Assembly: GCA_049510395.1 (NCBI GenBank)
Contig: JBEKYY010000012.1
Coordinates: 7,530 to 71,529, forward strand
Direction of reading: 5' to 3'
Source: Verrucomicrobiota bacterium
GTDB taxonomy: Bacteria > Verrucomicrobiota > Verrucomicrobiia > Limisphaerales > UBA11358
Length of the DNA: 64,000 nt
The translations under genes were made by a program, and so were the position numbers. Shown here piece by piece: positions 22,236-61,500 of the stretch; the stretch's first letter is position 1; each line of letters starts with the position of its first letter. The notes under the pieces are model-generated. The model ran no database searches, was not told the origin of the DNA, and saw nothing but the letters and a program-made list of their open reading frames with translations.

Positions 22236-23036
22236 TCAATGGCCGATGGAAGATTGGGAAGGATTTTTTGAACCCACCGCCGCATTCTTTAATTTCAGCA
22301 TTTCAGAATGTAATTGCTGCGCCAGCTCCTTGCGGCTGGTGTCAATGGATTGAATGGGGGCAAAGCGAACAAAAGCCCGGAAGGTACGCTTGCTCAACAG
22401 GTTCAGCAGGTGCGAAAAAAATGTCACGTCGCCCCAATAACAAACGTCTTTGCTCGCGTCGCCATCTTCGAGATCATACTGAATCAAGCTGATGGAAAGG
22501 GAATGAATTTGCCGCGTGGCCGGCTCGAGCAACGATGACTTGAACGGCAAGACGGTCTGGCCGTCCGAACTCGTTCCTTCGGGAAACACAACCACCAGCG
22601 CGCCGCCATCAAGCGCGGTTTGGATGGCGGCATTCACCGGCGCGACGTCCATCCGCCGTTCGCGATCAATAAACAGCGTGCCCGCCAGCCGGGCGAGCCA
22701 GCCGATGACCGGCCACGATTTGATTTCGTGCTTCGCGACAAAAACCGCGGGCGTGAGCGACGCCATCACCGGCACGTCGAGGTAGCTCAAATGATTGCTC
22801 ACGAGCAGGCCGCCGGACGGAACCGGCCCGGCGACTTGCGCTTCGAATTTGAAAATTCGCAGGATGCGGCGGGAAGCCCGTTGCAGCCACAAGGCACGCG
22901 CGGCCACCGCGGATTTTTTCGGATGGAACGCGCAGCGGATCAAAAAATCAAACAGCGCGATAATAACTTCGCCGGCAAACCAAAGCAGCCGCCCCAAAAC
23001 GCGGAATGGATGTCGGCGCAATCCTTTCATGCTCAA
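22236..23036 (-). CDS. plsC: Lysophospholipid (1-acyl-sn-glycerol-3-phosphate) acyltransferase family protein
   Basis: HX4D motif in VSNHLSYLDV, plus the FPEGTSS motif and an N-terminal hydrophobic segment. Confidence 0.8.
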   Translation of the reverse strand: MSMKGLRRHPFRVLGRLLWFAGEVIIALFDFLIRCAFHPKKSAVAARALWLQRASRRILRIFKFEAQVAGPVPSGGLLVSNHLSYLDVPVMASLTPAVFVAKHEIKSWPVIGWLARLAGTLFIDRERRMDVAPVNAAIQTALDGGALVVVFPEGTSSDGQTVLPFKSSLLEPATRQIHSLSISLIQYDLEDGDASKDVCYWGDVTFFSHLLNLLSKRTFRAFVRFAPIQSIDTSRKELAQQLHSEMLKLKNAAVGSKNPSQSSIGH

Positions 23037-25185: not shown

Positions 25186-25222
25186 GAAATTTAGACAACA
25201 TCAAACAACCAAGAAACCTATC

Positions 25223-44036: not shown

Positions 44037-44238
44037 GGGCGCAACTTGACACCACCGCCATTTTTTCTCCCTCTCCTCCTCCCGCCCTGCGGGAAGGAGA
44101 GGGGCGCCCGTCCTCCGTAGCAGTACTGCGGAGGGTGGAGGGTGAGGAGGCCGATTATTCAAGCTCAAATCCCCTCGCCCCAGCCCTCTCCCCGCTCGAG
44201 CGGGGAGAGGGAGTCGGCAGCAGTGTCAAGTTGCGCCC
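44037..44238 (+). mobile_element. MITE-like element (family M1), 202 nt, perfect 16-bp terminal inverted repeats
   Basis: GGGCGCAACTTGACAC at 44037..44052 and its exact reverse complement GTGTCAAGTTGCGCCC at 44223..44238. The interior carries three hairpin modules shared with 24993..25185 and 10671..10835. No coding capacity. Confidence 0.6.
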
Positions 44239-45551: not shown

Positions 45552-45717
45552 AAAGCTGCTCGATATCAGGCAGCTACTCGAAACACGCCGACTTGTCCCG
45601 CCGTAGTCCCGCTTTGCGGGACGAAGGTGGAAGTCACCGTGCCGTCGCGGGATGATTGGGAAAAGGATTGGGAGGAAAAATCCCACAACAGAGTCCCATC
45701 GAAGCAACCACCCGGCC

Positions 45718-47058
45718 TTACGGCTTGTCGTTATGAATTACAATCTGTTCGGCCATACGAGAAACCAGTGGAAGATATTTCCAAATCTTTATGTCATTAG
45801 CTCTCGTGGGTAAAATGACTCGACTTTCCCGCTTTTCACGTGCATGAACTAGGCAATTTCGGATCTTTGTAACTTGGTCGATAAGTTTTGGTGTCCACAT
45901 TTCACACCAGCCTTCTTCGGTTAAGTCAGATGAGATTAATTTCGGAACTACAAATCCTCCCTCAAAGGTTAAATCAGCGCAAAAAAACTTTTTATTTTGT
46001 TCGATGTCCTTCCATAAGATTTTTGGCTCGCAAAATTCCTCAATTACTCTGCGAATGCGTCCCTCTTCATTTTGAGCCGCATCGGTGAGCACTGAAAGTA
46101 GTTCACTGACACGTTCATCCGCACAATTAATGAACGAAGGGGAACGCAATAATCGTGTCAGGGAACTTTTAGTTTTGGCATCAATAAAATAAAACCCCGC
46201 ATATTCAAAAACTTGGTAGTAATATATAAATGCAAATCTTGGTTCGCTTGATCGGGCAACTTCAATCAGTCGTAACAATATATTGTCTGTAGGTTTAAAA
46301 GAAAGCTCCGCCGGAAAACATCCTTCCACATAACGCAACGGCTCTACGGCTCTTTCTTTTATATCTTCTGTCGGGCGTACTACAATAATTGGAGATTTCC
46401 TATCGTAGTACCTCATAAGCAGATTTAGATGTGTCGAAAATAATTCCCAGTCAATTTCCTTCAACGGGACAGAAGATTTAACAAAAAAGCAACGTGGGAC
46501 ACGCTTTTGGAAAAATTCTTTTACCTGGTCCGGCAATTCTTTAATTCGTTGGCAATCTCGAAAGGCGACTAGTTGCGGAACTGTTTGTTCCAAACCACTT
46601 GGCAATCGACGATAGTATTTAGAAATCAAAAAAAGTTGTTTGGATGGTTCACGAAAGACACATTCAAAAGCAACTCCTTGGAAATGAAATTTAAAGGCCC
46701 TGTCAACATATCCAGACTCTCTTTCGTTTTTGGGGTCTAAAAACGCAAAAATAAATTCTGCCTCGTTTTTGTCGAGATGCATCAGTGCGTCAAAACGAGG
46801 GTTTATCAGAAGGTGCTGAAGCTGTTCAATAGCAGCTGTATCGTTTAATGGAATTGAAATCTGGCCGTCTTCTTGTCCCCACGGTTGATTAATAATAAGT
46901 TTATCATCTTCCTTTGAAATTTTGACGTGAGGATTGTTTGAGGAAAACTTTTTAACACCTGAAGGATATGAGGAATCGCTTTCCATAATTGTTTCATAAT
47001 TTGAATCGAAATATGATGTGTTGCCAAGCAAATTTCGCCAGCAACAGCCCATTTGCAC
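45718..47058 (-). CDS. Hypothetical 446-aa protein with a C-terminal HEPN-like domain (Rx4H motif RNCLVH)
   Basis: AT-rich gene (about 40% GC by spot count versus more than 60% in the flanks). RNCLVH is encoded at 45844..45861, in the C-terminal helical region ...FAFIYYYQVFEYAG...KIRNCLVHAREKRE. No recognisable N-terminal domain. It lies 48 nt downstream of the methylase gene on the same strand. Confidence 0.6.
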   Translation of the reverse strand: MQMGCCWRNLLGNTSYFDSNYETIMESDSSYPSGVKKFSSNNPHVKISKEDDKLIINQPWGQEDGQISIPLNDTAAIEQLQHLLINPRFDALMHLDKNEAEFIFAFLDPKNERESGYVDRAFKFHFQGVAFECVFREPSKQLFLISKYYRRLPSGLEQTVPQLVAFRDCQRIKELPDQVKEFFQKRVPRCFFVKSSVPLKEIDWELFSTHLNLLMRYYDRKSPIIVVRPTEDIKERAVEPLRYVEGCFPAELSFKPTDNILLRLIEVARSSEPRFAFIYYYQVFEYAGFYFIDAKTKSSLTRLLRSPSFINCADERVSELLSVLTDAAQNEEGRIRRVIEEFCEPKILWKDIEQNKKFFCADLTFEGGFVVPKLISSDLTEEGWCEMWTPKLIDQVTKIRNCLVHAREKRESRVILPTRANDIKIWKYLPLVSRMAEQIVIHNDKP

Positions 47059-47106
47059 ACGTTGTGCTTCCTCGCAATGAGAACTGAATCCAAAAGGCCG
47101 ACGAAG

Positions 47107-48099
47107 TCATTCCAGCCTCCGCTTGGATCTGCTATGTTCAGCGCCTCCTCCTCGCTGTATTTTCGGCGAGCCTGTATGATATAAAGTGGGTTCTTCGCGG
47201 AAAATTCCTCCATCTTCAACCCAAGCTAAGTCTCTCCCAATTAGAAGCTCGTTCATCTCAGCATGATGGGTGTTTTTCATCGCTACCGGCTTCGTCGCAA
47301 AACCATGTCGCTTCGCAAGGGCGCAAACCTCCTCGGCGTTGTCGTAGGTCAATAGAAAGTCGCCACGGAGTTTTTCGCAAAGTGAGAACAAACGTTCGTG
47401 GTCAACTTCGCAATGCGTGTAAAGTCGTGACCCGGCGCTTTTGCCGCCAGCCGTGTAAGGAGGATCAATGAAGAACACAGCGTCCGGTTCGTTCTGAAAA
47501 CGTGCGAGTTCTTCAAAAGCGTCGCTGTGTTTGAATTCGATTCGGTGTGCAATGTACCCGATGTCCGTTATTCGCTTGGCGATGGTTTGTGGATACCAGC
47601 GGGAGACAATGCCCTTCCCGTTTTCACCATGCTTGAGGACACCAGCCCCTTCAGCTAGGATTCCGCCGTGCGCTGTCCGGTTTTTCAAGACTGTTTGGAA
47701 AGCAAGCTCGCGCTGGCTTCTTGGCGTCTTTGCAAATTCTGCTTTGGCTGATTCGATGGTGAGATCAAAAGAAAGGATGCGCTTTGCAAGCCACTCTGCA
47801 TCACCGCCGAGAATCGTTTTCCAGACGGACGCAATCTGCTGATCGAGTTCCACCATGACAACTCGGTCGGCCAGTTGCTCGAAAGCGGCGGTCAAGCTGA
47901 TGATTCCCCCACCAGCAAATGGTTCAACTAGAACCGCTGGCTGTCTGGGCAGACTCATCATCCAACGACGGAAAAGCGGCACGAGCCATGTCTTCCCGCC
48001 CGGATAGCGAAATGGGCTACGCTGAGGAACAGAAGCAACGTTTACTGGCTTCTCGCGTTCCTCAGTTTCAAATTCTGGCAGCAAAAAAGTCTGTGACAT
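47107..48099 (-). CDS. DNA adenine methyltransferase, Dam-like (D12 class, m6A)
   Basis: FRYPGGK near the N-terminus, EPFAGGG (SAM motif) and the catalytic FFIDPPY motif. The last ~35 aa look non-conserved, so the 3' end may be extended. Confidence 0.85.
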   Translation of the reverse strand: MSQTFLLPEFETEEREKPVNVASVPQRSPFRYPGGKTWLVPLFRRWMMSLPRQPAVLVEPFAGGGIISLTAAFEQLADRVVMVELDQQIASVWKTILGGDAEWLAKRILSFDLTIESAKAEFAKTPRSQRELAFQTVLKNRTAHGGILAEGAGVLKHGENGKGIVSRWYPQTIAKRITDIGYIAHRIEFKHSDAFEELARFQNEPDAVFFIDPPYTAGGKSAGSRLYTHCEVDHERLFSLCEKLRGDFLLTYDNAEEVCALAKRHGFATKPVAMKNTHHAEMNELLIGRDLAWVEDGGIFREEPTLYHTGSPKIQRGGGAEHSRSKRRLE

Positions 48100-48102
48100 A
48101 AC

Positions 48103-48987
48103 TCATTTGCCAAAAGGATTTTCAAGCGTCCGATTTATCGGCGGCGTTTCCAGTTTCTCATCAACCTTCGTCTGAAGCTGGCGCAAGAAATCTTCCATCT
48201 TGCCGGGGCGCGATTTCGTAATCTGGTTGAGAGCAGGTTCAAACCGGGTATAAACAGTCCGCTCGCGGAACATCTCGTAATGCACGCCGGCAGTTGTTGG
48301 CGGCTTCAAATCGTAAATCAGCCAAGCGATGTCAGCTTTCTCTTTCGGAACTTCAGGCAGTTTTGGAAGTGTATTAAAAAATCCTGTATTGAGAGCAACG
48401 GCGGTCTTCTTGCCCCATGCGTTGATGATACCGCCTTTGAAGATCAACTGCGGGGCTAGACGCTTACGGGAAGATGACAGGTAATCTGGCCGCGGATAAT
48501 TTTCTTCAGTCGTCCAATCCATGCTAGCGTTTTTCGCGGGAGCTTCCATGTAATGCTCAAACGGATTCCGCACGTTCCCGGAAATGTAAACGGCCTGCAC
48601 TTCCAGCGCGCCAAAATCATAAACCTTGCCCGTCTTGTCGTAAGCACAGAGGACGATGTCAATGTTGCCAGCTGAGCCGCCGTCGCCGTCTTTCAAGCGG
48701 ACTTCCGTAAGTGTTGTCCATGTCGCACTGGCTGGGAAAAAGAAATCCGCCGCGTCGTCCGCAATCATCCAGCCTTGCCGGAAGCGAATCGGGCAAGTGA
48801 TGACGACTTCGTTTTCCTGGAACACGCTGCAAACCCCAAGTGGGTCTTGCGCTTTGTCTTTCGTACAGTTCGGAACCTTGTTGTTGAACGGGCAAAGACG
48901 CTTTGTTCGATGGCGGTTCGCTCCAGCACTCATGTCGCTAACCGGAAACCCGAAAACTTCTGCAAGCGGATGAAGAATCTTTGCCAT
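48103..48987 (-). CDS. Putative type II restriction endonuclease, NotI-family-like
   Basis: N-terminal Cys4 pattern (CPF...C...GVC...CPIRF) preceded by AEVFGFPV, a central ALEVQAVYISG motif and LSSSRKRLAPQLIFKGG. These resemble the NotI Fe-Cys4 / catalytic layout as I recall it. The stop lies 3 nt before the methylase start. Confidence 0.55.
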   Translation of the reverse strand: MAKILHPLAEVFGFPVSDMSAGANRHRTKRLCPFNNKVPNCTKDKAQDPLGVCSVFQENEVVITCPIRFRQGWMIADDAADFFFPASATWTTLTEVRLKDGDGGSAGNIDIVLCAYDKTGKVYDFGALEVQAVYISGNVRNPFEHYMEAPAKNASMDWTTEENYPRPDYLSSSRKRLAPQLIFKGGIINAWGKKTAVALNTGFFNTLPKLPEVPKEKADIAWLIYDLKPPTTAGVHYEMFRERTVYTRFEPALNQITKSRPGKMEDFLRQLQTKVDEKLETPPINRTLENPFGK

Positions 48988-49402
48988 GCGGCGAGTGTGT
49001 GGCGAAATTCCAGCGGCGTCAATTCTCGCCTGTGGTAGGACAGCGGTTGGTTAAAACAACTCCCTCTCCACCGGCGCGGGGGCAGACCCGCCTTCGTTAC
49101 CTTCGGCGCGGCAAATGAGGTCGGGATGCTCGTTGCGGACGTTGTTCACTTCACGGCTGACGGGATAACCGAGTTTTAAGGCGGTTCTCTAGCAATCACG
49201 TTCGCAACAGAGAGCACACTTTTGGATGTGAACAACTTGTTCTAGACAGGAAATGAGGTCGGCGTAGAGTGGTAATAAATCAGAAGGCCGGCATCGCAGA
49301 CCCGGTGGGCCTCAGTTTTCAGCGTTCGTTTGGCTGCGTTCGCACGCTTTTGTTAAGTCACTTAAAATCAATTCAAAAACATCAAAAACTCAGGAGCACA
49401 CC

Positions 49403-50065
49403 ATGAAAAAATACCTCTCAATATCAATCGCAAGCATTTTGGCCTTAAGCGCCCCCGGTATCGCCAAGGCACAGTTTTCCATTACCGCCACCATTGGTGG
49501 CGTTCCCACTGTGAGCGGCGCTTCGTTAGAGAATTTTGACGAACCGACGCCGTCCATTCTGACACTTTCCGGTCCCGCCTATCTTGTCACGGGAACGGTC
49601 ACGCCCGAGTTCAACTGCGCCCAGCCCTACTTCTCCGGTTCGACAGCAGCTTTTTTTGGCGAATCCCCGACCTATGGCCCAGATGACAGCCAATACGTCG
49701 CCGTCTGTTTTGACGGTTCGGCGACACTCAGCTTTTCAACCCCACAGCTTTATTTTGGACTCCTTTGGGGTTCAGTTGATACAGCCAACACCCTTACTTT
49801 CTACGACAGTGCGAATAACGTCATTGGTAGCGTTTCTGGGTACGACATTCCAATATACTATGGCGACAGCGGCCCGAGTGGTACCTTTTATGTCAACATT
49901 ACTTCCACGACCCCATTTTCGAGTGTTGTCGTCAGCACTCCGGCTGCAAATGCATTCGAGTTCGATGATGTTGCTTACGCACAGGTAGTTCCAGAACCCG
50001 CCAGCCTGTCATTGCTGGCCGTCGGCATGTTTGGGATAACTCTCTTGCGTCGGCATCAGCGTTAA
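49403..50065 (+). CDS. PEP-CTERM sorting-domain protein
   Basis: Signal peptide (ILALSAPGIAKAQ) and C-terminal VPEPASLSLLAVGMFGITLLRRHQR (PEP motif + TM helix + Arg-rich tail). Confidence 0.85.
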   Translation: MKKYLSISIASILALSAPGIAKAQFSITATIGGVPTVSGASLENFDEPTPSILTLSGPAYLVTGTVTPEFNCAQPYFSGSTAAFFGESPTYGPDDSQYVAVCFDGSATLSFSTPQLYFGLLWGSVDTANTLTFYDSANNVIGSVSGYDIPIYYGDSGPSGTFYVNITSTTPFSSVVVSTPAANAFEFDDVAYAQVVPEPASLSLLAVGMFGITLLRRHQR

Positions 50066-50285
50066 TCCATTAAGGCATCCCGAAGTAAATTAAGAAGCAA
50101 AACTCCACCGGCCATAAAACCGGCAGGGTTTTTCATTTCAGCAGCCGGAACAATTGATTTGAGCCGCACCCAATGGTTTTTTCATTGGAGGGGAGAATTT
50201 TTGGCAAAGGCTGATTTTGTCAGAATTCTGACAGAAGAAAATGGATATAATAACATGGACGCCCCTCAAAACCCTTGATTTTAAA

Positions 50286-50360
50286 TGGAGCCTGCTGTCA
50301 GGATTGAACTGATGACCCACGGTTTACAAAACCGTTGCTCTACCGCTGAGCCAAGCTGGC
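50286..50360 (-). tRNA. tRNA-Thr (anticodon UGU), 75 nt with encoded CCA
   Basis: Reverse complement: GCCAGCT TG GCTC AGCGGTA GAGC A ACGGT TTTGTAA ACCGT GGGTC ATCAG TTCAATC CTGAC AGCAGGC T CCA. A cloverleaf is recognisable. Two mismatches, A4:A69 in the acceptor stem and A49:C65 in the T stem. Folded by hand only. Confidence 0.75.
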
Positions 50361-50405: not shown

Positions 50406-52745
50406 CTAAAGAGATTGCGTACCCGTGCTGAAAGGTTTGATGACCGCCGCACCATGGGTTCCGCGCGGGCAGGTGACGATGGCCAGCACGGGTTTGCTGG
50501 CCGCCTCAACCGGTGGAAACCCCAGCGCCAACGCCAGATCCAGCAGCGGCTGCGCTCCCTCCAAACATCCCGCAACCGGCGCCGTCCGCACCACGCGCCC
50601 CGGCCACGCCGGATGCAACTGTTCCAGCAGGGATTGCGGCCCGTGAAAACAGACCGTGCCAACATGATCGCGCCCAAGGCCAGCCTGCCTGAGCGCGTCC
50701 TCAACGGCCTCTTCCAGCCCCCGCTCACCGGCGGCGCACGCGAAGCCGCAAATTTCAGCCAGAAGCTTCGCACCGCGCCGGCCGGCATGCCGCGCCGTTT
50801 CAAGCATCAGCACGACCGCGCCTTCGCCGGGCGGAATTGCATTTTCGCCGGAGAGCAAACCCGCTGAAAAGCTGTCCGCGAGAATGCGGTCCGAAAGTTC
50901 ATCCACCGCGCCGCACAGGATGGCCCCGGTGTGGCCGCAACGCAGCGCGGCCAGGGCCGGCCCCAAACCGAGCAACCCCCCGCCCGGCCCGGGACTCAAG
51001 GTCAGGTTGTGGCCCGACAGCATGAGCGCGCGGCACACATTGCCCGCCACGGAACCGGGGACGATGTAGGGGAATGCCGTCAGTTGTGTCACCTGGCGGT
51101 TGTTCGACAGGAACGAAGTCAGATACTCCGACTCCGCCCACGACGGCCCGGCGGACAGATTCAGGAACAAACCCAGCTTCGCCAGTGCGGACGGCCTCTC
51201 GGAAAATCCCGCTTCCCGGATTGCCAGACGCGCCGCCACCGTGGCCCAACGGCTCGAACGGTCCATGTGCCGGAGGTCCAGTCGGCGGTCAAATGTTTCA
51301 ATTCCTTTCTCATCCACCATCCCTGCAAGGAGAGGTGGAAGTCCGGGAATGGAAACGGTATGCACGACCGATTTACCGTTTCGCTGTTCGCGATCCAAAG
51401 CCTCCACGCCAATGCCCGCTGCGGAAACGACTCCGCACGCCGTGATGAAAATGGGTTCGCTTTCGTCACTGGTAGGGACGCGCTGCCGCGCGTCCTGGTC
51501 CCGCAAAGCGGGATCGGCCCTACCATGATCGGGATTCGACGACACCGCGAGCACCATACTCGCGTTATGTCCGCCAAATGCCGAGTTGTTGCTGAGGAAA
51601 ACTTGCGGCGACGGCCAGGTCCGTCCGACCTCCGGCACGCAGTCCAGCGCGCAGCCTTCGCGCGGCCCGGTAAAGTTGGCGGTGGGCGGCAGGACGCCCG
51701 ACTTCGCGCACACGATGCCGGCGATGGCTTCCACCGCCCCGGCCGCGCCCAGACAGTGGCCGACCATGCTCTTGGTGGAACTGATGGGCGTGCGTTCCGC
51801 CTGTGCGCCGAACACTTTGCGGACGGCTTTGGCCTCGGCCTTGTCGTTGGACTCGGTGCCTGTGCCGTGGGCGTTGATGTAAGAGATTTGTTCCGGCGAA
51901 AGTCCGGCATCGGCGAGCGCGCGTTGCATGGCCGTTGCCAGGCCACGTCCCCCCGGTTCGGGCGCGGAGCAATGAAACGCATCGTTGCTCATGCCCGAGC
52001 CGAGAATTTCAGCGCAGACAATCGCCCCGCGCTGGTGCGCGCCGGCAAGCGATTCCAGAAACACAAACGCCGCCGCCTCGCCCAGGTTCAATCCAAACGG
52101 CTTTGAAAACGGAGCGCACTTGCCTTCACTCGTCGCTTTGAGGCCCTCGAAACCGGCGAGCGTGCTGGTGGAAAAGGCGTCGGAACCGCCGGCCAGCGCC
52201 GCATCGAGCATCCCACACCGAATCAGGTCGGCCGCCAGCGCCATTGCCGCCGTGCTGGCGGAACAGGCGGTTACCACTGTTGTGGACAAACCTTGCACAC
52301 CAAGTTCGCGGGCCAGCACTCGCGCGCCGGTGTAATACCGCTTGGCCAGCAACTCCTCTTCAGTCAACCGCGGGTCGCCGCGGATGATCCGCTCGTAGTG
52401 AGATTCGATGAGCAGCATCGGCCCGGAACACGTCGCGAAGATAAGCCCCAGCCGCCGGCCAAAATTTTCCGGGCACACGACGGCGGCCGCCAGCGCCTCG
52501 CGCGCTGCCACCATTGCCATCTGAATGTGCCGGTCGAACCCGGCCAGTTCCGGCAGCGGTTCCAGCGCAGCGGCGGCGGTCCCGGTCAGCAGTCCGGCAT
52601 AGCGGGATTTGAAATGCGCCGCCCGGGGGTCGGTGATGGGCGACAAACAACAGACGCCCGCCGTGATGTTCCGCTGGAACTCGACGACGTTGGCGCCCGC
52701 GCCGGACAGCACGCCCAACCCCGTGATGACAACGCGGTGGCTCAT
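50406..52745 (-). CDS. Fused ketosynthase + chain-length-factor-like (degenerate KS) protein
   Basis: Start MSHRVVITGLG at 52745. KS half has an intact triad (TACSAS, NAHGTGTESND, MVGHCLG). The second KS-fold half lacks the active-site Cys (LSPGPGGG). Confidence 0.8.
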   Translation of the reverse strand: MSHRVVITGLGVLSGAGANVVEFQRNITAGVCCLSPITDPRAAHFKSRYAGLLTGTAAAALEPLPELAGFDRHIQMAMVAAREALAAAVVCPENFGRRLGLIFATCSGPMLLIESHYERIIRGDPRLTEEELLAKRYYTGARVLARELGVQGLSTTVVTACSASTAAMALAADLIRCGMLDAALAGGSDAFSTSTLAGFEGLKATSEGKCAPFSKPFGLNLGEAAAFVFLESLAGAHQRGAIVCAEILGSGMSNDAFHCSAPEPGGRGLATAMQRALADAGLSPEQISYINAHGTGTESNDKAEAKAVRKVFGAQAERTPISSTKSMVGHCLGAAGAVEAIAGIVCAKSGVLPPTANFTGPREGCALDCVPEVGRTWPSPQVFLSNNSAFGGHNASMVLAVSSNPDHGRADPALRDQDARQRVPTSDESEPIFITACGVVSAAGIGVEALDREQRNGKSVVHTVSIPGLPPLLAGMVDEKGIETFDRRLDLRHMDRSSRWATVAARLAIREAGFSERPSALAKLGLFLNLSAGPSWAESEYLTSFLSNNRQVTQLTAFPYIVPGSVAGNVCRALMLSGHNLTLSPGPGGGLLGLGPALAALRCGHTGAILCGAVDELSDRILADSFSAGLLSGENAIPPGEGAVVLMLETARHAGRRGAKLLAEICGFACAAGERGLEEAVEDALRQAGLGRDHVGTVCFHGPQSLLEQLHPAWPGRVVRTAPVAGCLEGAQPLLDLALALGFPPVEAASKPVLAIVTCPRGTHGAAVIKPFSTGTQSL

Positions 52746-52752
52746 GCTGGCG

Positions 52753-55700
52753 TTATGGCTGCCACCCTTTTCGCAGCGCCACGGCGAAGTTGTAGCCAAC
52801 GTCACTGCTGGCGAGCGCGAGGATGTATTCCGGCGTCCCGCATCCTTCCCGCTGGTCCAGCTCGCTGACGCCCGTGCGTTGCGGCCACAGTTTGCCGCCG
52901 GTTGCCAGCGCTTCCAGCGCGGCGGCCAGACTCACCAGAATGGAGGCCGACTCAATGTAGCCGGTGTTGAATGTGGTCGTTACCAGCGGCAACTTTTTGA
53001 AATCCGGGCCAAACAATTCTTCGCACACCGTGATTACCTTGAGGTCCTGGCGATTGCCCTGCGGCGCCCAGACGATGAGTCCGATTTGCGATGGCGTCAC
53101 TCCGGCGCGGGTGAGTGCGAGTTGCGCGGCGTGTTTCAAACCTGCCGGGCCGTTGTTCGGCGCGGTGAATCCCTCCGCGTCCATGCTCATGCCGTAACCG
53201 AGCACTTCCGCCAGCACGGCGGCGCCGCGCCCCAGCGCATTCGTGGCGGTTTCCAGCACCAGCGTGGCCGCGCCTTCGCCGAGCGCTTTCTGTTTTTCCC
53301 GGTCAAGCCGCAGGCGGTAATCCGACTCTTCCGCGCCCGCGTAGAGGAAGCCAATGCCGTCGTAGTTGTAAAACGTCTGCGCGTACACCTCGTCCGCCGC
53401 CCCTGCCAGGATGGCGCGGGCGCGTTTCCCGGCCAGCGCATCGAACGCATAGGCCAGACTTTGCAACCCGGCGTGCGGCCCGGCGGAGAGCGAGGCATTG
53501 ACGCCTTTGAGATAAAGCGCGTTGGACACCCAGCCAGCAGTCGAGTTCGCCACGATGTTGGAAAAACTGGTGACGTTGGCCTGAAACGAATCGCTGCTGA
53601 ACACGCTGTCCATGTGGCCCATTTCCGACGGGCCATTGCACACGCCCATGACCACTCCGATTTCCCCGGCATGGCCCGGCGAAACTTTCAACGCGGCGTG
53701 CTTCAGGGCCAGCCGGCTGGCAGCCACGGCAAACCGGCTGATGTGGTTCAAGCCCGCAAAATCAATCCGGCGGTCCACCTCGGCGGCTTTGAAGGACGCG
53801 ACTTGTCCCACCAATCGCGCGCGTTCGGCCCGCAGCGGGAAGGCGGCCACGGGTGTCAGCCCCACGGCATGGTTGCGAAGCTGCGCCAGCGTTTTCTGGA
53901 TGCCCAACCCCAGCGACGTGACCGCGCCGACGCCGGTGATGACCACGCGTTCGTTGATTTCCTTGCGCGCGGGTACGGGCGAATCCCACCTGGTCACAAC
54001 CACCGCGGCGTTGTTGCCGCCGAAAGCGTAGTTCGCTGAAATGAAGGCGTCGTATTTTTTGGGGCGCGCTTCGTTCGGCACGAAGTCGAGCGCGCAACCG
54101 GGACGCGGCCCGCTGAAGTTGAGCGTGGGCGGAATGAAACCGGCGTTCATCGCCAGCAATTGCGCGGTGGCTTCCAGGATGCCGGTCACGCCCATGCAAT
54201 GGCCGAAAAATGATTTGGTCGAAACTGCCGGCAGCGGATGTCCGTCCATGAACGCCGCCATGCCGCGCGCTTCGGCTTTGTCGTTGGCCTCGGTGCCGGA
54301 ACCGTGCGCGTTGATGCAGCCGAGGTCGCTGATTGAAAGTCCGGAATCCTCCAGCGCAGCGCGCAAGGTGCGTTGCGCCCCCGAACCGCGCGGGTCAGGC
54401 GTGGTGGGATGATAGGCGTCGGACGTGGTCGCATGACCGGCGAGACGGCCGAGACAGCGCGCGTGGCGAAGAATCGCCTTCTCCATGTCCTCGACCACCC
54501 AGAAGCACGCGCCTTCGCCGACGTTCATGCCGTAGGGCGTGGAGAACGGCGCCATGCGGCCGGGCGCAGTGGCCTTGAGCGCGTCGAAACCGGACATGTT
54601 GGCCACGCAAAGAACATCCGCTCCGCCCACCAGCACGGTGTCGTAATAGCCGCGGTTGATGAGCGTTTGCGCCAGTCCCAGCGCGACAGTGGTGGAGGAA
54701 CACGCGGTGGTGATGACCCACGTTTCGCCGCCGAACTTCAGCGCGCTGGCCAGCGCCTTGCCAAAACCGTAAAGCTGCGCCTGCAAGTTCATGCGCTCGT
54801 CGAAGGCGCGCGAACTGCGGCCGTGTTTCCAGGCGTATTCGGCTTCGGCGGAACAAAGCCCGCCGTTGCAGGTGCCAAGCACCAGCGCGATGTCGCGGCG
54901 GATTTCTTTTCCGTCCCGTTGCAGTCCGGCGTCGCGCAGCGCCCGGCGCGCGGCGGCGATGGCGTAGCGCAGGTAAAGGTCTTCGTATTCCTCGTTCTCG
55001 GCATCGGTGAGCCAGTCGCGCAGGTTGAGATGCTTCGCTTCGCCTCCCAGGTTGGAACGGAAATGGCGCGCGTCGAATCGCGTGATGGGCCGGATGCCAT
55101 GCCGGCCGTTGCGCAACGCCTCCGTCACCGTGGACGCGTCGTTCCCGATGGGGCTGATGAGGCCAAGGCCCGTCACGACCGCTTGCTGGCGCACGCCCTG
55201 GCGTTGGAGCGGCTTGCCGACCACTTGCGCGCCATCCTTCCAGGTCGCGGGTTCGAGGTGCGCGGCGTGCTGCGTTTTCTGCGCGCGAAAGAATTCGCGC
55301 CAGAGCCGGATAAATTCTTCGCGCAGCCGCTCCGGGGTGAAATTCATGGGGCGCGCGACCACATGAGCGCCGTTGTAATGCGACCATTGATGGTCGAAGA
55401 TGCGGCCCTGCCGTTTCATGCGGTCCCAGTGGACGGAGCCGGGATACGGCGTGAAAATGAAGAACTCCGCCGTGCGAATGCCGGCCTCCGCATACAACGC
55501 CAACACCCGGTCCACGACATCCGGTTCATCCCAGTCCCGGCCGATGCCGCAGGAACCGAAAAACCGGATGCCGCGGTCTTCCAGATTCCGGACGAGGTCC
55601 TTGAGCATCTGCCGCTCGCGGGCTTCGCCTTTGATGGCGCGGATGGAAACCGGGTCCACGTTCATCGTGCAGTAGAAATTCCGCACGCCGGCGCGGGTCG

Positions 55701-56595
55701 CCAGATCGAGAAAGCCGGTCTCGGTGTTCAACGCCATCGTGGAGGAGACGAAATACTTTTTGCCCAGCGGCTCCACCGCGCGGAACAGGGCGCGGGCATA
55801 GTCGTTGATTTTCCGCTGCGGAAAGAAAAGCGTGTCGTCGGCCAGATACACGTTCTCGTGTTTGAGCGAGCGCAGTTCCTCGACGACGCGTTCGATGGGC
55901 CGGAAGCGGATGCGCCCGCCCATTTGCGCCGGGAGCGAACACATGCCGCAGGTGTAGGAACAGCCCCGCGTCAGTTGCACGAGGTCTTCGTCCCAGTCGT
56001 AGAAATCGTTCGTGTAAAAAATCTCGCGCCTGGGAATCGGCTGCGCGGCCAGGTCGGCGGAACTGCCGCCCTGGTAAACCGGTTTCAAAGTGCCGGCTCG
56101 GGCGTCCGCAAGAATCCGCCGCCAGGTGGCCTCGCCTTCGCCAACGTTCACCGAGTCTGCATGTTTAAGACATTCCTCCACCATGAACGAGGGGAACAGC
56201 CCGCCCATGACGACCTTTTTGCCGCGGGCGCGAAAACCGTCGGCAATTTCAAACGCGCGGGTGGCCTGGGGTGTGAAGCAGTTGATGGCGACCAGGTCCG
56301 TTGGGGCGTCGAAGTTGAGTGTCTGCCCGCTGTTGTCATCCACCAGTTCGATTTCAACCTCCGGCGGCGTCAACGAGGCAAGGATGGGGATGCCCAGCGA
56401 AGGCGGGGTGGTGAAGTTGCCCAGGAAATAGTCCACCAGCCCCTGGTCCAGCTCCGGCAGGCCAGTGAGAAACTTTTCAAACCGGGGATAAACAAATGTG
56501 ACTTTCAATTGGGCTCTGCCGGACCACCCGAGCGCGACGAGCGGGGTAACAGTACCGTTCGGACAAAACTGGACAAGAAATTTCTCTTTCACCAC
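52753..56595 (-). CDS. Fusion of B12-binding-type radical SAM domain + ketosynthase + chain-length-factor-like domain (~1250-1280 aa)
   Basis: VAINCF...VVMGG...NVGEGE (B12-binding-like). CSYTCGMC encoded at 55939..55962 (CxxxCxxC). KS triad TACSS / NAHGSGTEAND / FFGHCMG. The C-terminal KS-fold lacks Cys/His (SAGPHAG, WAPQGN). Possible alternative TTG start at 56508 (LKVTFVYP). Confidence 0.8.
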   Translation of the reverse strand: MVKEKFLVQFCPNGTVTPLVALGWSGRAQLKVTFVYPRFEKFLTGLPELDQGLVDYFLGNFTTPPSLGIPILASLTPPEVEIELVDDNSGQTLNFDAPTDLVAINCFTPQATRAFEIADGFRARGKKVVMGGLFPSFMVEECLKHADSVNVGEGEATWRRILADARAGTLKPVYQGGSSADLAAQPIPRREIFYTNDFYDWDEDLVQLTRGCSYTCGMCSLPAQMGGRIRFRPIERVVEELRSLKHENVYLADDTLFFPQRKINDYARALFRAVEPLGKKYFVSSTMALNTETGFLDLATRAGVRNFYCTMNVDPVSIRAIKGEARERQMLKDLVRNLEDRGIRFFGSCGIGRDWDEPDVVDRVLALYAEAGIRTAEFFIFTPYPGSVHWDRMKRQGRIFDHQWSHYNGAHVVARPMNFTPERLREEFIRLWREFFRAQKTQHAAHLEPATWKDGAQVVGKPLQRQGVRQQAVVTGLGLISPIGNDASTVTEALRNGRHGIRPITRFDARHFRSNLGGEAKHLNLRDWLTDAENEEYEDLYLRYAIAAARRALRDAGLQRDGKEIRRDIALVLGTCNGGLCSAEAEYAWKHGRSSRAFDERMNLQAQLYGFGKALASALKFGGETWVITTACSSTTVALGLAQTLINRGYYDTVLVGGADVLCVANMSGFDALKATAPGRMAPFSTPYGMNVGEGACFWVVEDMEKAILRHARCLGRLAGHATTSDAYHPTTPDPRGSGAQRTLRAALEDSGLSISDLGCINAHGSGTEANDKAEARGMAAFMDGHPLPAVSTKSFFGHCMGVTGILEATAQLLAMNAGFIPPTLNFSGPRPGCALDFVPNEARPKKYDAFISANYAFGGNNAAVVVTRWDSPVPARKEINERVVITGVGAVTSLGLGIQKTLAQLRNHAVGLTPVAAFPLRAERARLVGQVASFKAAEVDRRIDFAGLNHISRFAVAASRLALKHAALKVSPGHAGEIGVVMGVCNGPSEMGHMDSVFSSDSFQANVTSFSNIVANSTAGWVSNALYLKGVNASLSAGPHAGLQSLAYAFDALAGKRARAILAGAADEVYAQTFYNYDGIGFLYAGAEESDYRLRLDREKQKALGEGAATLVLETATNALGRGAAVLAEVLGYGMSMDAEGFTAPNNGPAGLKHAAQLALTRAGVTPSQIGLIVWAPQGNRQDLKVITVCEELFGPDFKKLPLVTTTFNTGYIESASILVSLAAALEALATGGKLWPQRTGVSELDQREGCGTPEYILALASSDVGYNFAVALRKGWQP

Positions 56596-56836
56596 GGCTT
56601 CGCTTCCTCAACCCATCGCGTGCGCCGCGACGATTTGTTTCACCGGCGTTCCGTCACATCAATTAGTCATCCAAATAGCAATAACTATGGATTGACAGTC
56701 TTCATAATTTGTGAGTGAATGCAATTGTTGTGAAAAGTTCGCAGAAAACTGGCCGACGCTGCGGCACAGAAGGAGCGTCGTCGTCAAAAAGCAATTTCCT
56801 GTCAGTAATGGGGCACTGTTCAGAAAAGGCAAAAAT

Positions 56837-58525
56837 ATGAAAACTCAGGATGCCTTTGCGACCACAAGCGGCTCGAACACGATGGCCAGTCGTTTAATGG
56901 CTGCCTGCGTCGCGAGACTGCTGCCGCTGCTGCTGTTGGTGTTGCCCGCCGCGGTGCAAGCCCAAGACTACACTTGGACGACCAATGGCGATAACACGAT
57001 CACCATCACGGGTTACACCGGTTCCGGCGGTGATGTGACCATCCCGGACACGATCACTGGCCTGCCGGTTACCAGCATCGGGAATCACGCGTTCATCTGC
57101 TCCCCCCTGACCAGCGTCATGATCGGCACCAACGTTACCAGCATCGGAGTCTCGGCGTTCCTTGGCTCCGGCCTGACCAGCGTCACGATAGGCAACAGCG
57201 TCACCAGCATCGGGGAGGGGGCGTTCGAAGCCTGCACCAGCCTAACCAGCGTTACGATCCCCAACAGTGTCACCAACATCGGGTACGATGCGTTCTATTC
57301 CTGTACCAGCCTGACCAGCGTCGCGATAGGCAACAGCGTCACCAGCATCGGAGTATGGGTGTTCTATTCCTGCACCAGCCTGACCAACGTCACGATCCCC
57401 AACAGCGTCACCAGCATCGGATACGAGGCGTTCTCTGGCTGCACTAGCCTGACCAGCGTCACGATCCCCAACAGCGTCACCGGCATCGGGCCTGGGGCGT
57501 TCCAAAACTGCACCAGCCTGACCAGTATCACGATCCCCAACAGCGTCACCAGCATCGGATACGAGGCGTTCTCTGGCTGCACCAGCCTGACCGGCGTTAC
57601 GATCCCCGACAGCGTTACCAGCATCGAGGACTATGCGTTCGCTGGCTGCGCTAGCCTAACCAACGTCATCATCCCCGACAGCGTCACAAGCATCGGGGAC
57701 TATGCCTTCGCTAGCTGCACCGGCCTGACCAACGCCATGATAGGCAACAGTGTCGCCAACCTCGGGAGATATGCGTTCTCTTCCTGCACCAGCCTGACTA
57801 GCGTCACGATTCCCAACAGCGTCACCAACATCGGGAACTATGCGTTCACTAGCTGCACTGGCCTGACCAACGCCATGATAGGCAACAGTGTCACCAGCAT
57901 CGGGGATTATGCGTTCAATGACTGCGGTAGCCTGACCAGCGTCACAATTGGCAACAGTGTCACCAGCATTGGGGAGTGGGCGTTCTCTTGGTGCACCAAC
58001 CTGAGCAGCGTGACGATCCCCGACAGCGTCACCAGCATCGGGTTTGTTGCGTTCTTTTGCTGCACTAACCTGACTAGCGTCACGATTGGCAACGGCGTCA
58101 CCTACATTGGGGGCGGAGCATTTCAATACTGCATCAGCCTGACAGGAGTCTATTTCCAAGGCAATGCCCCCAACCTTGATTCTAGGTTGCGCGTCTTCGG
58201 CGGTGACAACAGTACAACTATCTATTACTTGCCGGGGACCACGGGCTGGGTCTCGACCTTTGGCGATTGTCCGACCGCGCTATGGTTCCTTCCGTACCCG
58301 CTGATTCTAAACTACGAACCAAGTTTTGGGGTGCGGACGAATCGGTTCGGTTTCATTATTTCTTGGGCAACTAACATCTCCGTCGTGGTGGACGCCTGCA
58401 CAAACCTGACCAATACCGGCTGGTCTCCGGTGCAAACCAACACCCTCACCGGCGGCTGGTGTTATTTCAGCGATCCGGATTGGACGAATTATCCCGGTCG
58501 TTTCTACCGCCTCCGTTCGCCGTGA
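56837..58525 (+). CDS. Secreted BspA-type LRR protein, paralogue 2
   Basis: ATG at 56837 (MKTQDAFATTSGSNTMASRL... signal peptide ...AVQAQ). N-cap NTITITGYTGSGGDVTIPDTITGLPVTSIG, about 18 LRR_5 repeats and a C-terminal module ending FYRLRSP. Confidence 0.85.
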   Translation: MKTQDAFATTSGSNTMASRLMAACVARLLPLLLLVLPAAVQAQDYTWTTNGDNTITITGYTGSGGDVTIPDTITGLPVTSIGNHAFICSPLTSVMIGTNVTSIGVSAFLGSGLTSVTIGNSVTSIGEGAFEACTSLTSVTIPNSVTNIGYDAFYSCTSLTSVAIGNSVTSIGVWVFYSCTSLTNVTIPNSVTSIGYEAFSGCTSLTSVTIPNSVTGIGPGAFQNCTSLTSITIPNSVTSIGYEAFSGCTSLTGVTIPDSVTSIEDYAFAGCASLTNVIIPDSVTSIGDYAFASCTGLTNAMIGNSVANLGRYAFSSCTSLTSVTIPNSVTNIGNYAFTSCTGLTNAMIGNSVTSIGDYAFNDCGSLTSVTIGNSVTSIGEWAFSWCTNLSSVTIPDSVTSIGFVAFFCCTNLTSVTIGNGVTYIGGGAFQYCISLTGVYFQGNAPNLDSRLRVFGGDNSTTIYYLPGTTGWVSTFGDCPTALWFLPYPLILNYEPSFGVRTNRFGFIISWATNISVVVDACTNLTNTGWSPVQTNTLTGGWCYFSDPDWTNYPGRFYRLRSP

Positions 58526-58576: not shown

Positions 58577-61500
58577 ATGAAAATTCAGGATTCCTTTGCG
58601 ACCACAAGCCGCCCGAACACGATGGCCGGGGGTTTAAAAACCGCCTGCGCCGCGAGACTGCTGCCGCTGCTGTTGATGGCGTTGCCTACAGCGGTGCAAG
58701 CCCAAGACTACACTTACACGACCAATGGCGACAACACGATCACCATTACGGGATACACCGGTTCCGGCGGGGCGGTGACCATCCCGGATACGATTTCTGG
58801 CCTGCCAGTCACCAGAATCGGAAGCTCCGCGTTCTATCAGTGCTTCAGCCTGAGAAGCATCACGATTGGCAACAGCGTCACCAGCATCGGAAACTCTGCG
58901 TTCTATCAGTGCATCGGCCTGAAGATCGTCACCATCTCCAACAACGTCACCAGCATCGGGCACAATGCGTTCTATTTCTGCAACAACCTGACCAACGTCA
59001 CAATCGGCAGCAGTGTCACCAACATCGATTACAGTGCGTTCGCTAGCTGCTATAAACTGTCCCGCATCACGATTCCCAACAGCGTCACCAGCATCGGGCA
59101 TGATGTTTTCTCCACCTGCACCAACCTGATCAGCGTCACGATTGGCAACGGCGTCACCAGCATCGGGGACTATGCGTTCTATGACTGCACCAAGCTGCCC
59201 AGCGTTACGATCCCCAACAGCGTCACCAACATCGGGATCTATGTGTTCTCTGGCTGCGCCAGCCTGTACAGCGTTGTGATTGGCACCAACGTCACCAGCA
59301 TCGGGAGCTATGAGTTCTACAACTGCGCCAGCCTGAACAACATCACCATCCCCAACAGCGTCACCAGCATCGGGAGCTATGCGTTCTCTGGTTGCACCAG
59401 CCTGATGGGAGTCTATTTCCAGGGCAATGCCCCCGGCGTTGATTCGACTTTGTTCTCCGGAGACAACAATGAGACCGTCTATTACCTGCCGGAAACCACC
59501 GGCTGGGTATCGCCGTTCGGCGGTTGTCCGAGGGTGCTCTTGTCATACACTTTCACGACCAATAACGGCGCAATCACCATTACCGGATACATTGGTTCCG
59601 GCGGTGCGTTGACCATCCCTGGCACGATCAACAGCCTGCCGGTCACCGGCATCGGGGACTGGGCTTTCGCAGAGTGCTGGGGCCTGACCAGCGTCACCAT
59701 CCCCAACGGCGTCACCAACATCGGATACGGTGCGTTTGAGAATTGCTCTGACCTGACCGGCATCACGATCCCCAACAGCGTCACCAGCATCGAGGACTGG
59801 GCTTTCGCGGAGTGCTGGGACCTGACCAGCGTCACGATCCCCAACAGCGTCACCAGCATGGGGGACTTTACGTTCTATGACTGCGCCAGCCTGACCAGTG
59901 TCATGCTCCCCAACGGCGTCACCAACATCGGGGTCTTGGCGTTCTATGACTGCACCAGTCTGACCAGCGTCACGATCCCCAACAGCGTCACCAGCATCGG
60001 GGACCAGGCGTTCTATTACTGTATCAGCCTGACCGGAGTCTATTTCCAAGGTAACGCCACCACCGCCCTCGGTTGGGAAGCGTTCGCCGATGACAACAAC
60101 GCCACCGTCTATTATTTGCCGGGGACCACGGGCTGGGGCTCGACTTTTGGCGGTCTTCCGGTCGCGCCCTTGCCATACACTTACACGATCAACAATGGCA
60201 CGATCACCATCACGAAATACACCGGTCCCGGTGGTGCGGTGACCTTCCCAGACAGGATCAATGGCCTGCCGGTCACCAGCATCGGGTATATGGCGTTCCA
60301 TTATTGCACCAACCTGACCAGCGTCACCATCCCCAACAGTGTCACCAGCATCGGGAGTTTGGCGTTCGATTCCTGCACCAAACTGGCCAGCGTCACGATA
60401 GGCAACAGCGTCACCAGCATCGGGAGCTCTGCGTTCTTTAACTGTAGCAGCCTGACCAGCGTCACCATCCCCAACAGCGTCACCAGCATCAATGAGGGGG
60501 TATTCTCTGACTGCACGAGCCTGACCAATGTCACGATTCCCAACAGTATCACCAGCATCGGGGACTTTGCGTTCTCCGACTGCACCAGCCTGACCAGCGT
60601 GACGATTCCTGCCAGCGTCACCAACATCGAGGGATCGGCGTTCGATGCCTGCTACGGCCTGACGGCAATCAATGTGAATACGCTCAATTCCGTTTATAGC
60701 AGTGTGAATGGGGTTTTATTCGACAAGAGCCAGACAACGCTTATCCAGTGTCCGGAGGGCAAAGCCGGCAGCTACACGATTCCCAACGGCGTCACCAGCA
60801 TTGGGGACTTTGCGTTCTATGACTGCATCAGCCTGACCAGCGTCACGATCCCCAGCAGTGTTACCAACCTAGGGAGCTATGCGTTCTCTGGCTGCACCAG
60901 CTTGATCGGAGTCCATTTCAATGGGAACGCCCCCAACGTTGATTCGTCTGTGTTCTTTGGTGATAATAATGCAACCGTTTATTACCTGCCGGGGACCACG
61001 GGCTGGGGCTCGACCTTTGGCGGTCGTCCGGCGGTGCTCCTGCCATACACTTACACGATCAACAACGGAACGATCACCATCACGGGTTACACCGGCTCCG
61101 GTGGTGCAGTGGCCATCCCGGACACGATCGATGGCCTGCCGGTCATCAGCATCGGGGACTCGGCTTTTTCTGGTAAATCCAGCGTGACCAGCGTGACGAT
61201 TCCCAACAGCGTCACCAACATCGGAAACAGCACGTTCCAATCCTGCTCCAACCTGACCAGCGTTACGATTCCCAATAGCGTTACTAATATCGGAAGTTCT
61301 GCGTTCCGATCCTGCACCAGCTTGACCAATGTCACAATCGGCGACAGCGTCACCAGCATCGGAAGTTATGCGTTCTGGAGCTGCACCAAACTGGCCAGCG
61401 TGACGATCCCCAACAGTGTAACCAGCATCGGGGACCATGCGTTCGATTCCTGCCGCAGCCTGACCAATGTCACAATCGGCAGCGGCGTCACCAGCATCGG

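Follow-up and report, generated by a model that had tools for sequence, protein, structure and literature searches.

What does a bacterium build with a radical S-adenosylmethionine (SAM) enzyme that is fused to a ketosynthase (KS), and can the genes involved do it alone? The question is raised by a Verrucomicrobiota bacterium (Limisphaerales; UBA11358), in which a stretch of 64,000 nucleotides (GenBank assembly GCA_049510395.1, contig JBEKYY010000012.1, positions 7,530 to 71,529), hereafter the window, has two long open reading frames (ORFs) on the minus strand within 50406..56595. Gene 1 encodes a tri-domain protein, in which a class-B-type radical SAM domain is followed by an active ketosynthase (KS1) and by a triad-less partner of chain-length-factor type (CLF1). 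Gene 2 encodes a second KS-CLF didomain. The pair is probably the condensing-enzyme core of a conserved, acyl carrier protein (ACP)-dependent pathway resembling type II fatty acid synthases (FAS) and polyketide synthases (PKS), with the radical SAM domain tethered to it and with the partner genes split off in this genome. The operon and its boundaries are as follows.

52753..56508, minus strand: gene 1, radical SAM-KS1-CLF1 tri-domain protein, 1251 amino acids (aa), start TTG at 56508
50406..52745, minus strand: gene 2, KS2-CLF2 didomain, 779 aa, start ATG at 52745
50286..50360, minus strand: tRNA-Thr(TGT), on the same strand, 45 nt downstream of gene 2
56711..58525, plus strand: BspA-type leucine-rich repeat (LRR) gene, divergent, upstream of gene 1

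All motifs quoted in an initial annotation of this region, which was made from the sequence alone, are present in the translations. Its boundaries, tRNA-Thr on one side and the divergent LRR gene on the other, were confirmed, as was the description of gene 2 as a paralogous KS-CLF didomain whose ATG lies 7 nt after the TAA stop codon of gene 1. The ORF of gene 1 is also as described, but its start had to be corrected. The mechanical ORF (52753..56595) reaches a GTG at 56595, while homologues open with (M/V)K(V/I)TFVYPRFEKF, which corresponds here to VKVTFVYP at the TTG at 56508. Since all homologues begin at this position, the likely product has 1251 aa and not 1280. Promoter and terminator scans around the operon gave nothing above chance level.

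The radical SAM domain of gene 1

The N-terminal part of gene 1 has these features.

55264..56508, minus strand: class-B-type radical SAM domain, residues 1-415, with a Rossmann-like B12-binding-type subdomain and a radical SAM barrel
55939..55962, minus strand: CxxxCxxC [4Fe-4S]/SAM motif, CSYTCGMC (C183/C187/C190), read in the sequence
55189..55263, minus strand: flexible linker between radical SAM domain and KS1, residues 416-440, predicted local distance difference test (pLDDT) below 50

The motif CSYTCGMC lies exactly where the initial annotation had placed it, and C183, C187 and C190 do not vary among 121 fused homologues or among 103 diverse representatives of the family. The domain calls of that annotation fared unevenly in a Pfam scan: the ketoacyl-synt matches were strong, but the N-terminus fell just under the gathering cut-offs for B12-binding (27.9 bits vs 32.1) and Radical_SAM (28.5 bits vs 29.5). 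Despite these scores the radical SAM assignment is secured by the invariant cysteines, by weak class-B radical SAM matches in NCBIfam (TIGR04013, TIGR04072, HpnR and HpnJ), by an exhaustive search with the 436-aa N-terminal domain, which gathered 1007 representative clusters at E<1e-30 (mostly stand-alone proteins of ~430-450 aa), and by structure prediction. The AlphaFold2 model of residues 1-440 has a pLDDT of 92.4, with disorder limited to the linker 416-440. A sequence search of the PDB with the domain returned marginal matches only, and a structure-based search was therefore needed. Foldseek with the full-length domain (415 residues) placed AprD4 at the top (template modelling score, TM, 0.75) and also found MgmA, TsrM, CysS and OxsB. 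MgmA is the glutamine methylase of methyl-coenzyme M reductase, CysS is a class-B methylase with a pantetheine-tethered substrate, and TsrM is also a methylase.

The CxxxCxxC motif and the barrel match in the model place the domain in the radical SAM superfamily. A Rossmann-like domain before the barrel, as in class B, is indicated by the predicted model, by the NCBIfam matches and by the GG motif of the Rossmann subdomain (G102/G103), which is invariant across the 103 family representatives; as modelled, the N-terminal domain of gene 1 has a class-B radical SAM fold. No curated cut-off was reached by any of these representatives. The ladderane-type model TIGR04072 gave 52.8 bits against a curated cut-off of 360, and orthology to TIGR04072, TIGR04013, HpnR, HpnJ, BchE and AprD4 was rejected, as the window sequence and 102 relatives score far below the cut-offs.

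Ketosynthase and chain-length-factor domains

The remaining part of gene 1 and the whole of gene 2 consist of four KS-fold domains, all on the minus strand.

53899..55188, minus strand: KS1, active FabF-like ketosynthase, Cys603/His735/Lys765/His770 (FabF alignment, Pfam, NCBIfam)
52756..53898, minus strand: CLF1, triad-less KS fold, motifs HM, NSTAGW, GPHAG, DE, WAPQGN and FNTGY invariant
51516..52745, minus strand: KS2, Cys161/His293/Lys325/His330, intact
50409..51440, minus strand: CLF2, triad-less KS fold, shorter and more degenerate

Strong ketoacyl-synt N and C domains were found by Pfam in both proteins. The initial annotation had read an active KS followed by an inactive half in each gene, which alignments and invariance among homologues bear out. 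Against FabF of B. subtilis (4ls5) KS1 gave 229 bits with the catalytic residues aligned, and the catalytic residues of KS1 and KS2 are invariant among homologues. In CLF1 the Cys is replaced by Gly and the two His by Trp and Tyr. The proteins are thus of KS/CLF type, a KS with the Cys-His-His triad being joined to a triad-less KS-fold partner. Gene 2 is collinear with the KS1-CLF1 part of gene 1, and this collinearity, together with the identities between KS1 and KS2 (35%) and between CLF1 and CLF2 (32%), indicates that the KS-CLF didomain was duplicated as a unit. The AlphaFold2 model of KS1-CLF1 (pLDDT 90.9, pTM 0.94) has its best PDB match in the KS-CLF didomain of PfaC (6riw, TMq 0.81 over 930 columns), single FabF chains covering just one half each. 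KS1-CLF1 is predicted from this model to form a PfaC-like intramolecular pseudo-heterodimer.

The housekeeping FabF equivalog TIGR03150 (cut-off 493.75) was missed by gene 1 (424.6 bits) and by gene 2 (380.3 bits), and both genes lie outside any fab operon context and encode didomain KS-CLF parts. The NCBIfam subfamily PRK07314 (FabF) was passed by gene 1 (404.8 vs 387). An aromatic type II PKS is not indicated: CLF1 has Gly, not Gln, at the active-site position and gave 57.5 bits with the act CLF (1tqy_B) against 97 with FabF, and cyclases were absent among 81 clustered loci.

Occurrence and conservation of the fusion

More than 120 proteins of ~1251 aa are 62-96% identical to gene 1 over 97-98% of the query; the few named homologues belong to Verrucomicrobiota, Chitinivibrionales or Fibrobacter. 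With one genome scanned for each GTDB species, relatives turned up in 191 species genomes. The best 80 of these loci all come from metagenome-assembled genomes (MAGs), of Verrucomicrobiota, Rokubacteria, Fibrobacterota/Chitinivibrionales, Victivallales, Kiritimatiellae, Omnitrophota, Planctomycetales and Myxococcota/'Deltaproteobacteria', and many are from bog, fen, peat, sediment or digester samples. The hosts of the pathway are uncultured, mostly anaerobic bacteria of at least eight phyla.

The initial annotation took the radical SAM-KS-CLF protein as the product of one gene and allowed for the danger that separate genes had been joined by an assembly or frameshift error. That danger is removed by the constancy of the fusion across independent assemblies. 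Of 48 loci scored, 44 have the radical SAM and KS parts joined in one gene, and an artefactual fusion was ruled out by the constant length of 1251 aa, the continuous reading frame and a linker of conserved length, across which conservation is continuous in 121 sequences. The other four scored loci, all in Myxococcota or 'Deltaproteobacteria' MAGs, are unfused with the radical SAM and KS-CLF genes adjacent, and in the Myxococcota relatives the split falls at the linker position of gene 1. Fused and adjacent-but-separate states together read as the classic signature of functionally coupled partners. The neighbours of one unfused Myxococcota locus (L085) gave no informative Pfam matches.

Compared with the closest species genome (locus L007, 93% nt identity), the ratio of non-synonymous to synonymous substitution rates (dN/dS) is 0.08 for gene 1 and 0.31 for gene 2, and no frameshifts or stops were found in the 6.1 kb of both genes. 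No radical SAM-ketosynthase fusion and no characterised homologue were found in the literature, which upholds the view of the initial annotation that such a fusion has no place in a characterised pathway. A 2026 review reports proposals of radical SAM modification of ketoacyl lipids for ladderanes and jawsamycin only. Homologues are labelled 3-oxoacyl-ACP synthase II by JGI, which is misleading for proteins of ~1250 aa with this architecture.

Other fusions and paralogues of the radical SAM family were observed. P0130 is a 931-aa fusion of a related class-B radical SAM domain (40% identity) with a CrtI/phytoene-desaturase-family domain (L087 594-3389; L088 2828-5623). It adjoins an ACP, a lipid-A-type acyltransferase and a second desaturase homologue in L088 and a class I/II aminotransferase in L087, and it recalls the pairing of radical SAM and desaturase genes in anammox Cluster I; its position beside an ACP indicates that the same building blocks recombine in related systems. 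P0228 (1210 aa) joins an HpnN/MMPL-type resistance-nodulation-division (RND) lipid exporter to a related class-B radical SAM domain (34% identity), another hint that the family may act on membrane lipids. An extra stand-alone paralogous class-B radical SAM gene lies upstream of the fused gene in L009, L013, L015, L040, L051, L052, L053, L057 and L069, with a third paralogue in L051. These extra genes would imply more than one radical step in some lineages.

Partner genes in orthologous loci

The initial annotation regarded the two genes as self-contained and presumably served by the housekeeping ACP. Orthologous loci do not support this. The census covered 49 non-redundant orthologous loci with at least 3 kb of downstream sequence, in which the following partners were counted.

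Dedicated ACP, directly following: 42 of 49
ACP plus GcvT-like protein: 41
FabG-like reductase (ketoreductase, KR): 38
FabD-like acyltransferase (AT): 30
KS2-CLF2: 29
Thioesterase (TE): 22
FabZ-like dehydratase (DH): 19
FMN_red-SCP2 protein: 15
PlsC-like acyltransferase: 13

From these counts the constant core is [radical SAM-KS-CLF][ACP][GcvT-like][KR], and KS2-CLF2 is optional, so that the repeat of the KS-CLF design in gene 2 is not the defining trait. In Fibrobacter, in Chitinivibrionales and in the nearest relative (P0001, 96% aa identity in gene 1) the pair is followed by ACP, GcvT-like, YbgC-type TE, FabG-like and FabD-type genes, and P0001 has the full cluster. The dedicated ACP is divergent (41 bits on the acyl-carrier model, cut-off 70), and its stop codon is often overlapped by the GcvT-like (GCV_T) gene. 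A flavodoxin-like FMN_red-SCP2 fusion, a FabZ-like (ApeI-like/ApeP-like) DH and a PlsC-like acyltransferase are often present on the opposite strand. De novo clustering of all ORFs in 81 loci added an MMPL/HpnN-like exporter in 10 loci. No dedicated enoyl reductase (ER) was found in the clusters, and the core cluster showed no desaturase homologue.

Some lineages have additional genes. In Verrucomicrobial clusters the FabD-like gene is followed by a ~586-aa fusion of a GNAT/FeeM-like N-acyltransferase with a class I/II (HisC/CobD-like) pyridoxal phosphate enzyme (L023 17641-19398; also L004, L009, L012, L033 and L042), which suggests attachment of the acyl product to an amino compound. In a Fibrobacterota subclade (L055, L059, L063, L066 and L086) an aryl-polyene/flexirubin-like set lies immediately upstream of the module (L063 439-9918). 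It comprises an AMP-ligase, a family 2 glycosyltransferase (GT2) with Lip_A_acyltrans, a tyrosine ammonia-lyase (TAL)-like protein, a LolA2_flexi-like protein, an MMPL/HpnN-like exporter, a PRK09185-type stand-alone KS (385 bits vs cut-off 407) and FabG2 (TIGR01831, above cut-off). Neither TAL nor AMP-ligase was seen within 10 kb in the Verrucomicrobial relatives of the window. Orthologues embedded in a cluster of characterised type, which the initial annotation had named as speaking against a new system, occur in this subclade only, and the radical SAM-bearing variant there is itself uncharacterised. The flavoaffinin (yellow affinity substance) gene cluster of cellulolytic clostridia was rejected as a match for the Fibrobacterota clusters, being a type I PKS with no radical SAM gene.

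The probably disrupted locus in this genome

The absence of ACP, AT, KR and DH genes near the pair, already noticed in the initial annotation, was confirmed for the whole window: tblastn with ACP, GcvT-like, TE, KR, AT, DH and FMN_red queries from three phyla gave no match within the 64 kb. A weak partial match to the PlsC-like partner (22539..22862, 23% identity over 109 aa) was rejected as a different acyltransferase. The tRNA-Thr occupies the place where orthologous loci have the ACP and GcvT-like genes, and both flanks of the pair are unlike those of the nearest relative. The blastn similarity to L007 covers gene 1 and the greater part of gene 2 before it ends at window position 50738. Most of gene 2 has 89-95% aa identity and a synonymous divergence (dS) of 0.1-0.3 to L007, compared with 51-62% aa identity and a dS of about 1.2 in its last 170-180 codons. 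Beside the tRNA-Thr there is a stretch of low GC content (45700-50100; 46-52% GC vs ~59% elsewhere). The features of the breakpoint and of this stretch are:

50406..50740, minus strand: divergent 3' end of gene 2, likely recombination/synteny breakpoint (comparison with L007)
49403..50065, plus strand: PEP-CTERM protein, low-GC island
48103..48987, minus strand: NotI-family restriction endonuclease, low-GC island
47107..48099, minus strand: D12-class adenine methyltransferase, low-GC island
45718..47058, minus strand: 446-aa ORF with no Pfam match, low-GC island

The low-GC stretch resembles an island gained by horizontal transfer at a tRNA gene. The sequence comparison is most simply read as the outcome of a recombination event, at the 3' end of gene 2 or close to it, that cut the pair off from the ACP-GcvT-TE-KR-AT genes; these are presumably encoded elsewhere in this genome. 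Seven of the 49 loci are likewise without a downstream ACP (e.g. L006, L024 and L027), so that the arrangement is recurrent and probably tolerated with the partners acting in trans.

Two families of GC-rich palindromic intergenic repeats of ~100-170 nt, similar to repetitive extragenic palindromic (REP) sequences or miniature inverted-repeat transposable elements (MITE), were also observed in the window.

42953-43113, 37608-37733 and 18216-18345: repeat family one
44140-44238 and 10671-10805: repeat family two

In L007 one copy lies between gene 1 and gene 2 (L007 13815-13981). Another interrupts the linker between KS2 and CLF2 without a shift of frame (L007 15282-15380), giving a gene 2 product of 825 aa compared with 779 aa here.

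Comparison with known systems

We class the system with the type II KS/CLF systems of aryl-polyene and ladderane-type clusters, here with a fused class-B radical SAM domain. By composition, not by orthology, anammox Cluster I would be its closest functional analogue. This cluster of putative ladderane genes contains amxACP, amxFabZ, amxFabF2 and amxFabFmut, a phytoene-desaturase homologue and a B12-radical SAM gene, and its FabF pair was recently shown to be a KS/CLF-like heterodimer. Both systems have a class-B radical SAM protein, a FabF-derived KS with a triad-less partner, a dedicated ACP and a FabZ-type DH, and the product is unproven in both. In contrast to anammox Cluster I, our system has radical SAM, KS and CLF in one polypeptide that does not reach TIGR04072, a near-constant GcvT-like protein, no desaturase homologue in the core cluster, and hosts that are not anammox bacteria. 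The second-best PDB sequence match of CLF1 is chain C of 9s5h (96 bits), an entry that we take to be the amxFabF heterodimer, with chain B as amxFabF2. KS1 gave 214 bits with 9s5h chain B and 229 with 4ls5, and is no nearer to that chain than to ordinary FabF. A Cys-to-Gly change in common with amxFabFmut was considered and dropped, as the paper gives Val or Thr at that position and the phmmer register is uncertain.

Genome-mining surveys have reported 'ladderane' biosynthetic gene clusters (BGCs) without assigned function, expressed in situ, in the non-anammox phyla Desulfobacterota, Fibrobacterota, Myxococcota, Verrucomicrobiota, Planctomycetota and Omnitrophota. These are probably clusters of the present family.

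Resemblance to the aryl polyene (APE)/flexirubin type II PKS extends to the highly reducing type, KS/CLF, KR, FabZ-like DH, TE and lack of an ER, to LPLAT/PlsC-type acyltransferases and to MMPL and LolA-like export proteins; the DH matches ApeI-like and ApeP-like Pfam families. Canonical genes of that type are the ApeO/ApeC KS-CLF, ApeR, ApeQ, ApeI/P, ApeD, ApeJ, ApeL and ApeM, and the TAL FlxA. However, KS and CLF are separate proteins in these canonical clusters. To our knowledge, with which a literature search concurs, they contain neither a radical SAM domain nor a GcvT-like protein.

PfaC of the polyunsaturated fatty acid (PUFA) synthases (6riw) also has KS and CLF fused in one chain as a pseudo-heterodimer, but its sequence is just 16% identical to that of KS1-CLF1. 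The tandem ACPs, FabA-type DH pairs and ER that belong to PUFA synthases, which are type I-like megasynthases, are all absent here. The neighbours in relatives are discrete type II proteins, and the PfaA model TIGR02813 gave 56 bits vs 1010. Radical SAM chemistry on carrier-tethered chains has precedents in CysS and in Jaw5, the jawsamycin cyclopropanase, which works with the iterative PKS Jaw4 on a thioester-tethered chain in step with elongation. Unlike the gene 1 protein, both are stand-alone proteins without a fused ketosynthase, and Jaw5 is HemN-like, not class B.

Proposed pathway and alternative explanations

In the proposed pathway, KS1 and KS2 would elongate a chain on the dedicated ACP with malonyl units, as the intact Cys-His-His(+Lys) sites and the FabD-like AT of relatives indicate. 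CLF1 and CLF2 would be dead partners that shape the acyl tunnel with their respective KS, and the FabG-like KR and FabZ-like DH would process the beta-keto groups. Since no dedicated ER was found, the intermediates are probably of hydroxy-, enoyl- or polyene-type. The radical SAM domain, on its flexible linker, would generate a 5'-deoxyadenosyl radical and modify an unactivated carbon of the growing chain while this is bound to the KS or the ACP. Cobalamin-dependent C-methylation is the favoured chemistry, taken as the default because the fold matches the methylases TsrM, CysS and MgmA; radical C-C bond formation (cyclisation) would be the alternative. The acyl product may be released by the TE or passed to the PlsC-like or LpxL-like acyltransferase, and in some lineages MMPL and LolA-like proteins, as found among the neighbours in relatives, may export it to the envelope. 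The GcvT-like partner, being near-obligate, suggests either one-carbon chemistry linked to folate or a use of the ACP arm that resembles an H-protein.

Several points weigh against this pathway or its details. The role of the near-invariant GcvT-like partner is not explained by the model. The Pfam B12-binding score is below cut-off, and cobalamin binding is putative. AprD4, the closest structure, is a cobalamin-independent diol dehydratase, and the domain may not be a methylase. Stand-alone radical SAM relatives with 41-46% identity (P0124 and P0126) are not beside KS or ACP genes, and the distant relative P0135 lies on a contig of 1.4 kb. Inference at the family level is restricted accordingly to the close clade. 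The probable link to antiSMASH 'ladderane' clusters was drawn from agreement in phyla and gene content. In this genome the partners are not seen in the window, and function here rests on intact ORFs and purifying selection. Finally, the listed genomes are all MAGs, and the chemistry is entirely inferred.

An AprD4-like role of the tethered domain is possible though unlikely. A cobalamin-independent dehydratase, isomerase or cyclase would then act on hydroxy- or enoyl-ACP and yield carbocyclic or rearranged chains, with rings closed during chain growth in a ladderane-like manner. The top rank of AprD4 in the structural search fits this, as do the B12-binding score and the presence of KR and DH without ER, from which polyene or enoyl intermediates are expected, and the likeness in composition to anammox Cluster I together with the elongation-coupled cyclisation hypothesis of the 2026 review. 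However, G102/G103 are invariant, the cobalamin enzymes TsrM, CysS, OxsB and MgmA are strong matches too, TIGR04072 stays at 53 bits against 360, and no carbocyclic lipids are known from the host phyla. It is quite unlikely that the tethered domain forms C-C bonds by radical chemistry, or alkylates carbon iteratively, on an enoyl or polyene chain that KS1/CLF1 holds and elongates, giving carbocyclic or heavily branched envelope lipids in widespread uncultured anaerobes of peat, sediments and digesters.

Distinctly improbable is a self-contained two-gene unit that borrows ACP, FabD, FabG and FabZ from the housekeeping FAS II and makes a radical-modified fatty acid alone. The lack of partner genes in the window, the seven other loci without downstream ACP and two intact ORFs under purifying selection would agree with it. 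Against this, a dedicated divergent ACP is present in 42 of 49 loci, often translationally coupled to the GcvT-like gene, the 96%-identical relative has the full set, and the breakpoint inside gene 2 indicates a rearrangement rather than a designed minimal operon.

We hold it highly doubtful that the pair is a non-functional, decaying remnant of a cluster broken by recombination or by insertion of the island. Synteny is indeed lost on both sides in comparison with L004 and L007, gene 2 stands out by a raised dN/dS and by strong divergence at its 3' end, and the low-GC island with its restriction-modification system adjoins the tRNA-Thr. But the 6.1 kb contain no frameshifts or stops, gene 1 has a dN/dS of 0.08 and all catalytic residues are intact; even the divergent 3' segment has a dN/dS of ~0.25, the CLF2 C-terminus evolves fast across the whole family, and split arrangements recur in other lineages. 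That the fusion is an assembly or annotation artefact, or that the genes are ordinary housekeeping FabF paralogues, can be dismissed despite the PRK07314 match of gene 1 and the JGI label, since the 1251-aa architecture occurs in hundreds of independent assemblies of at least eight phyla, gene 1 misses the FabF equivalog and half of each KS-CLF part is triad-less.

Other genes of the window

Large BspA-type LRR (LRR_5) proteins of 604, 1382 and 720 aa are encoded at 56711-58525, 58577-62725 and 29467-31629, respectively; the first two genes lie directly upstream of the radical SAM-KS operon and are divergent from it. Genes of anaerobe-type energy metabolism were found at 1454-6789, 10968-15000, 25001-27202 and 32212-35832. 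They encode a NuoF-like/GltD-like fusion (1165 aa), a molybdopterin/NuoG-like protein, an ADP-forming acetyl-CoA synthetase, an acetyl-CoA hydrolase/transferase-GNAT fusion, an acetyl-CoA synthetase and a pyruvate:ferredoxin oxidoreductase. An anaerobic Verrucomicrobiota host fits these genes, and oxygen-sensitive radical SAM chemistry is plausible there.

Conclusions

The pair in the window is an orphaned fragment of a larger system. In at least eight phyla this system unites a class-B radical SAM domain with an active KS and a CLF in a single polypeptide, next to a dedicated ACP and a GcvT-like protein. The fusion is a strong Rosetta-stone argument for radical chemistry coupled to chain elongation. 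The clusters are compact, with 7-11 genes, and suited to heterologous expression, and they are a candidate source of envelope lipids or pigments in abundant uncultured anaerobes of peat and sediment. Ladderane biosynthesis is unsolved, partly because anammox bacteria are genetically inaccessible. If radical C-C bond formation is indeed coupled to elongation here, the family would offer the first tractable model for ladderane-type biosynthesis and a possible source of orphan sedimentary lipid biomarkers, with the folate-linked GcvT-like partner supplying or removing one-carbon units.

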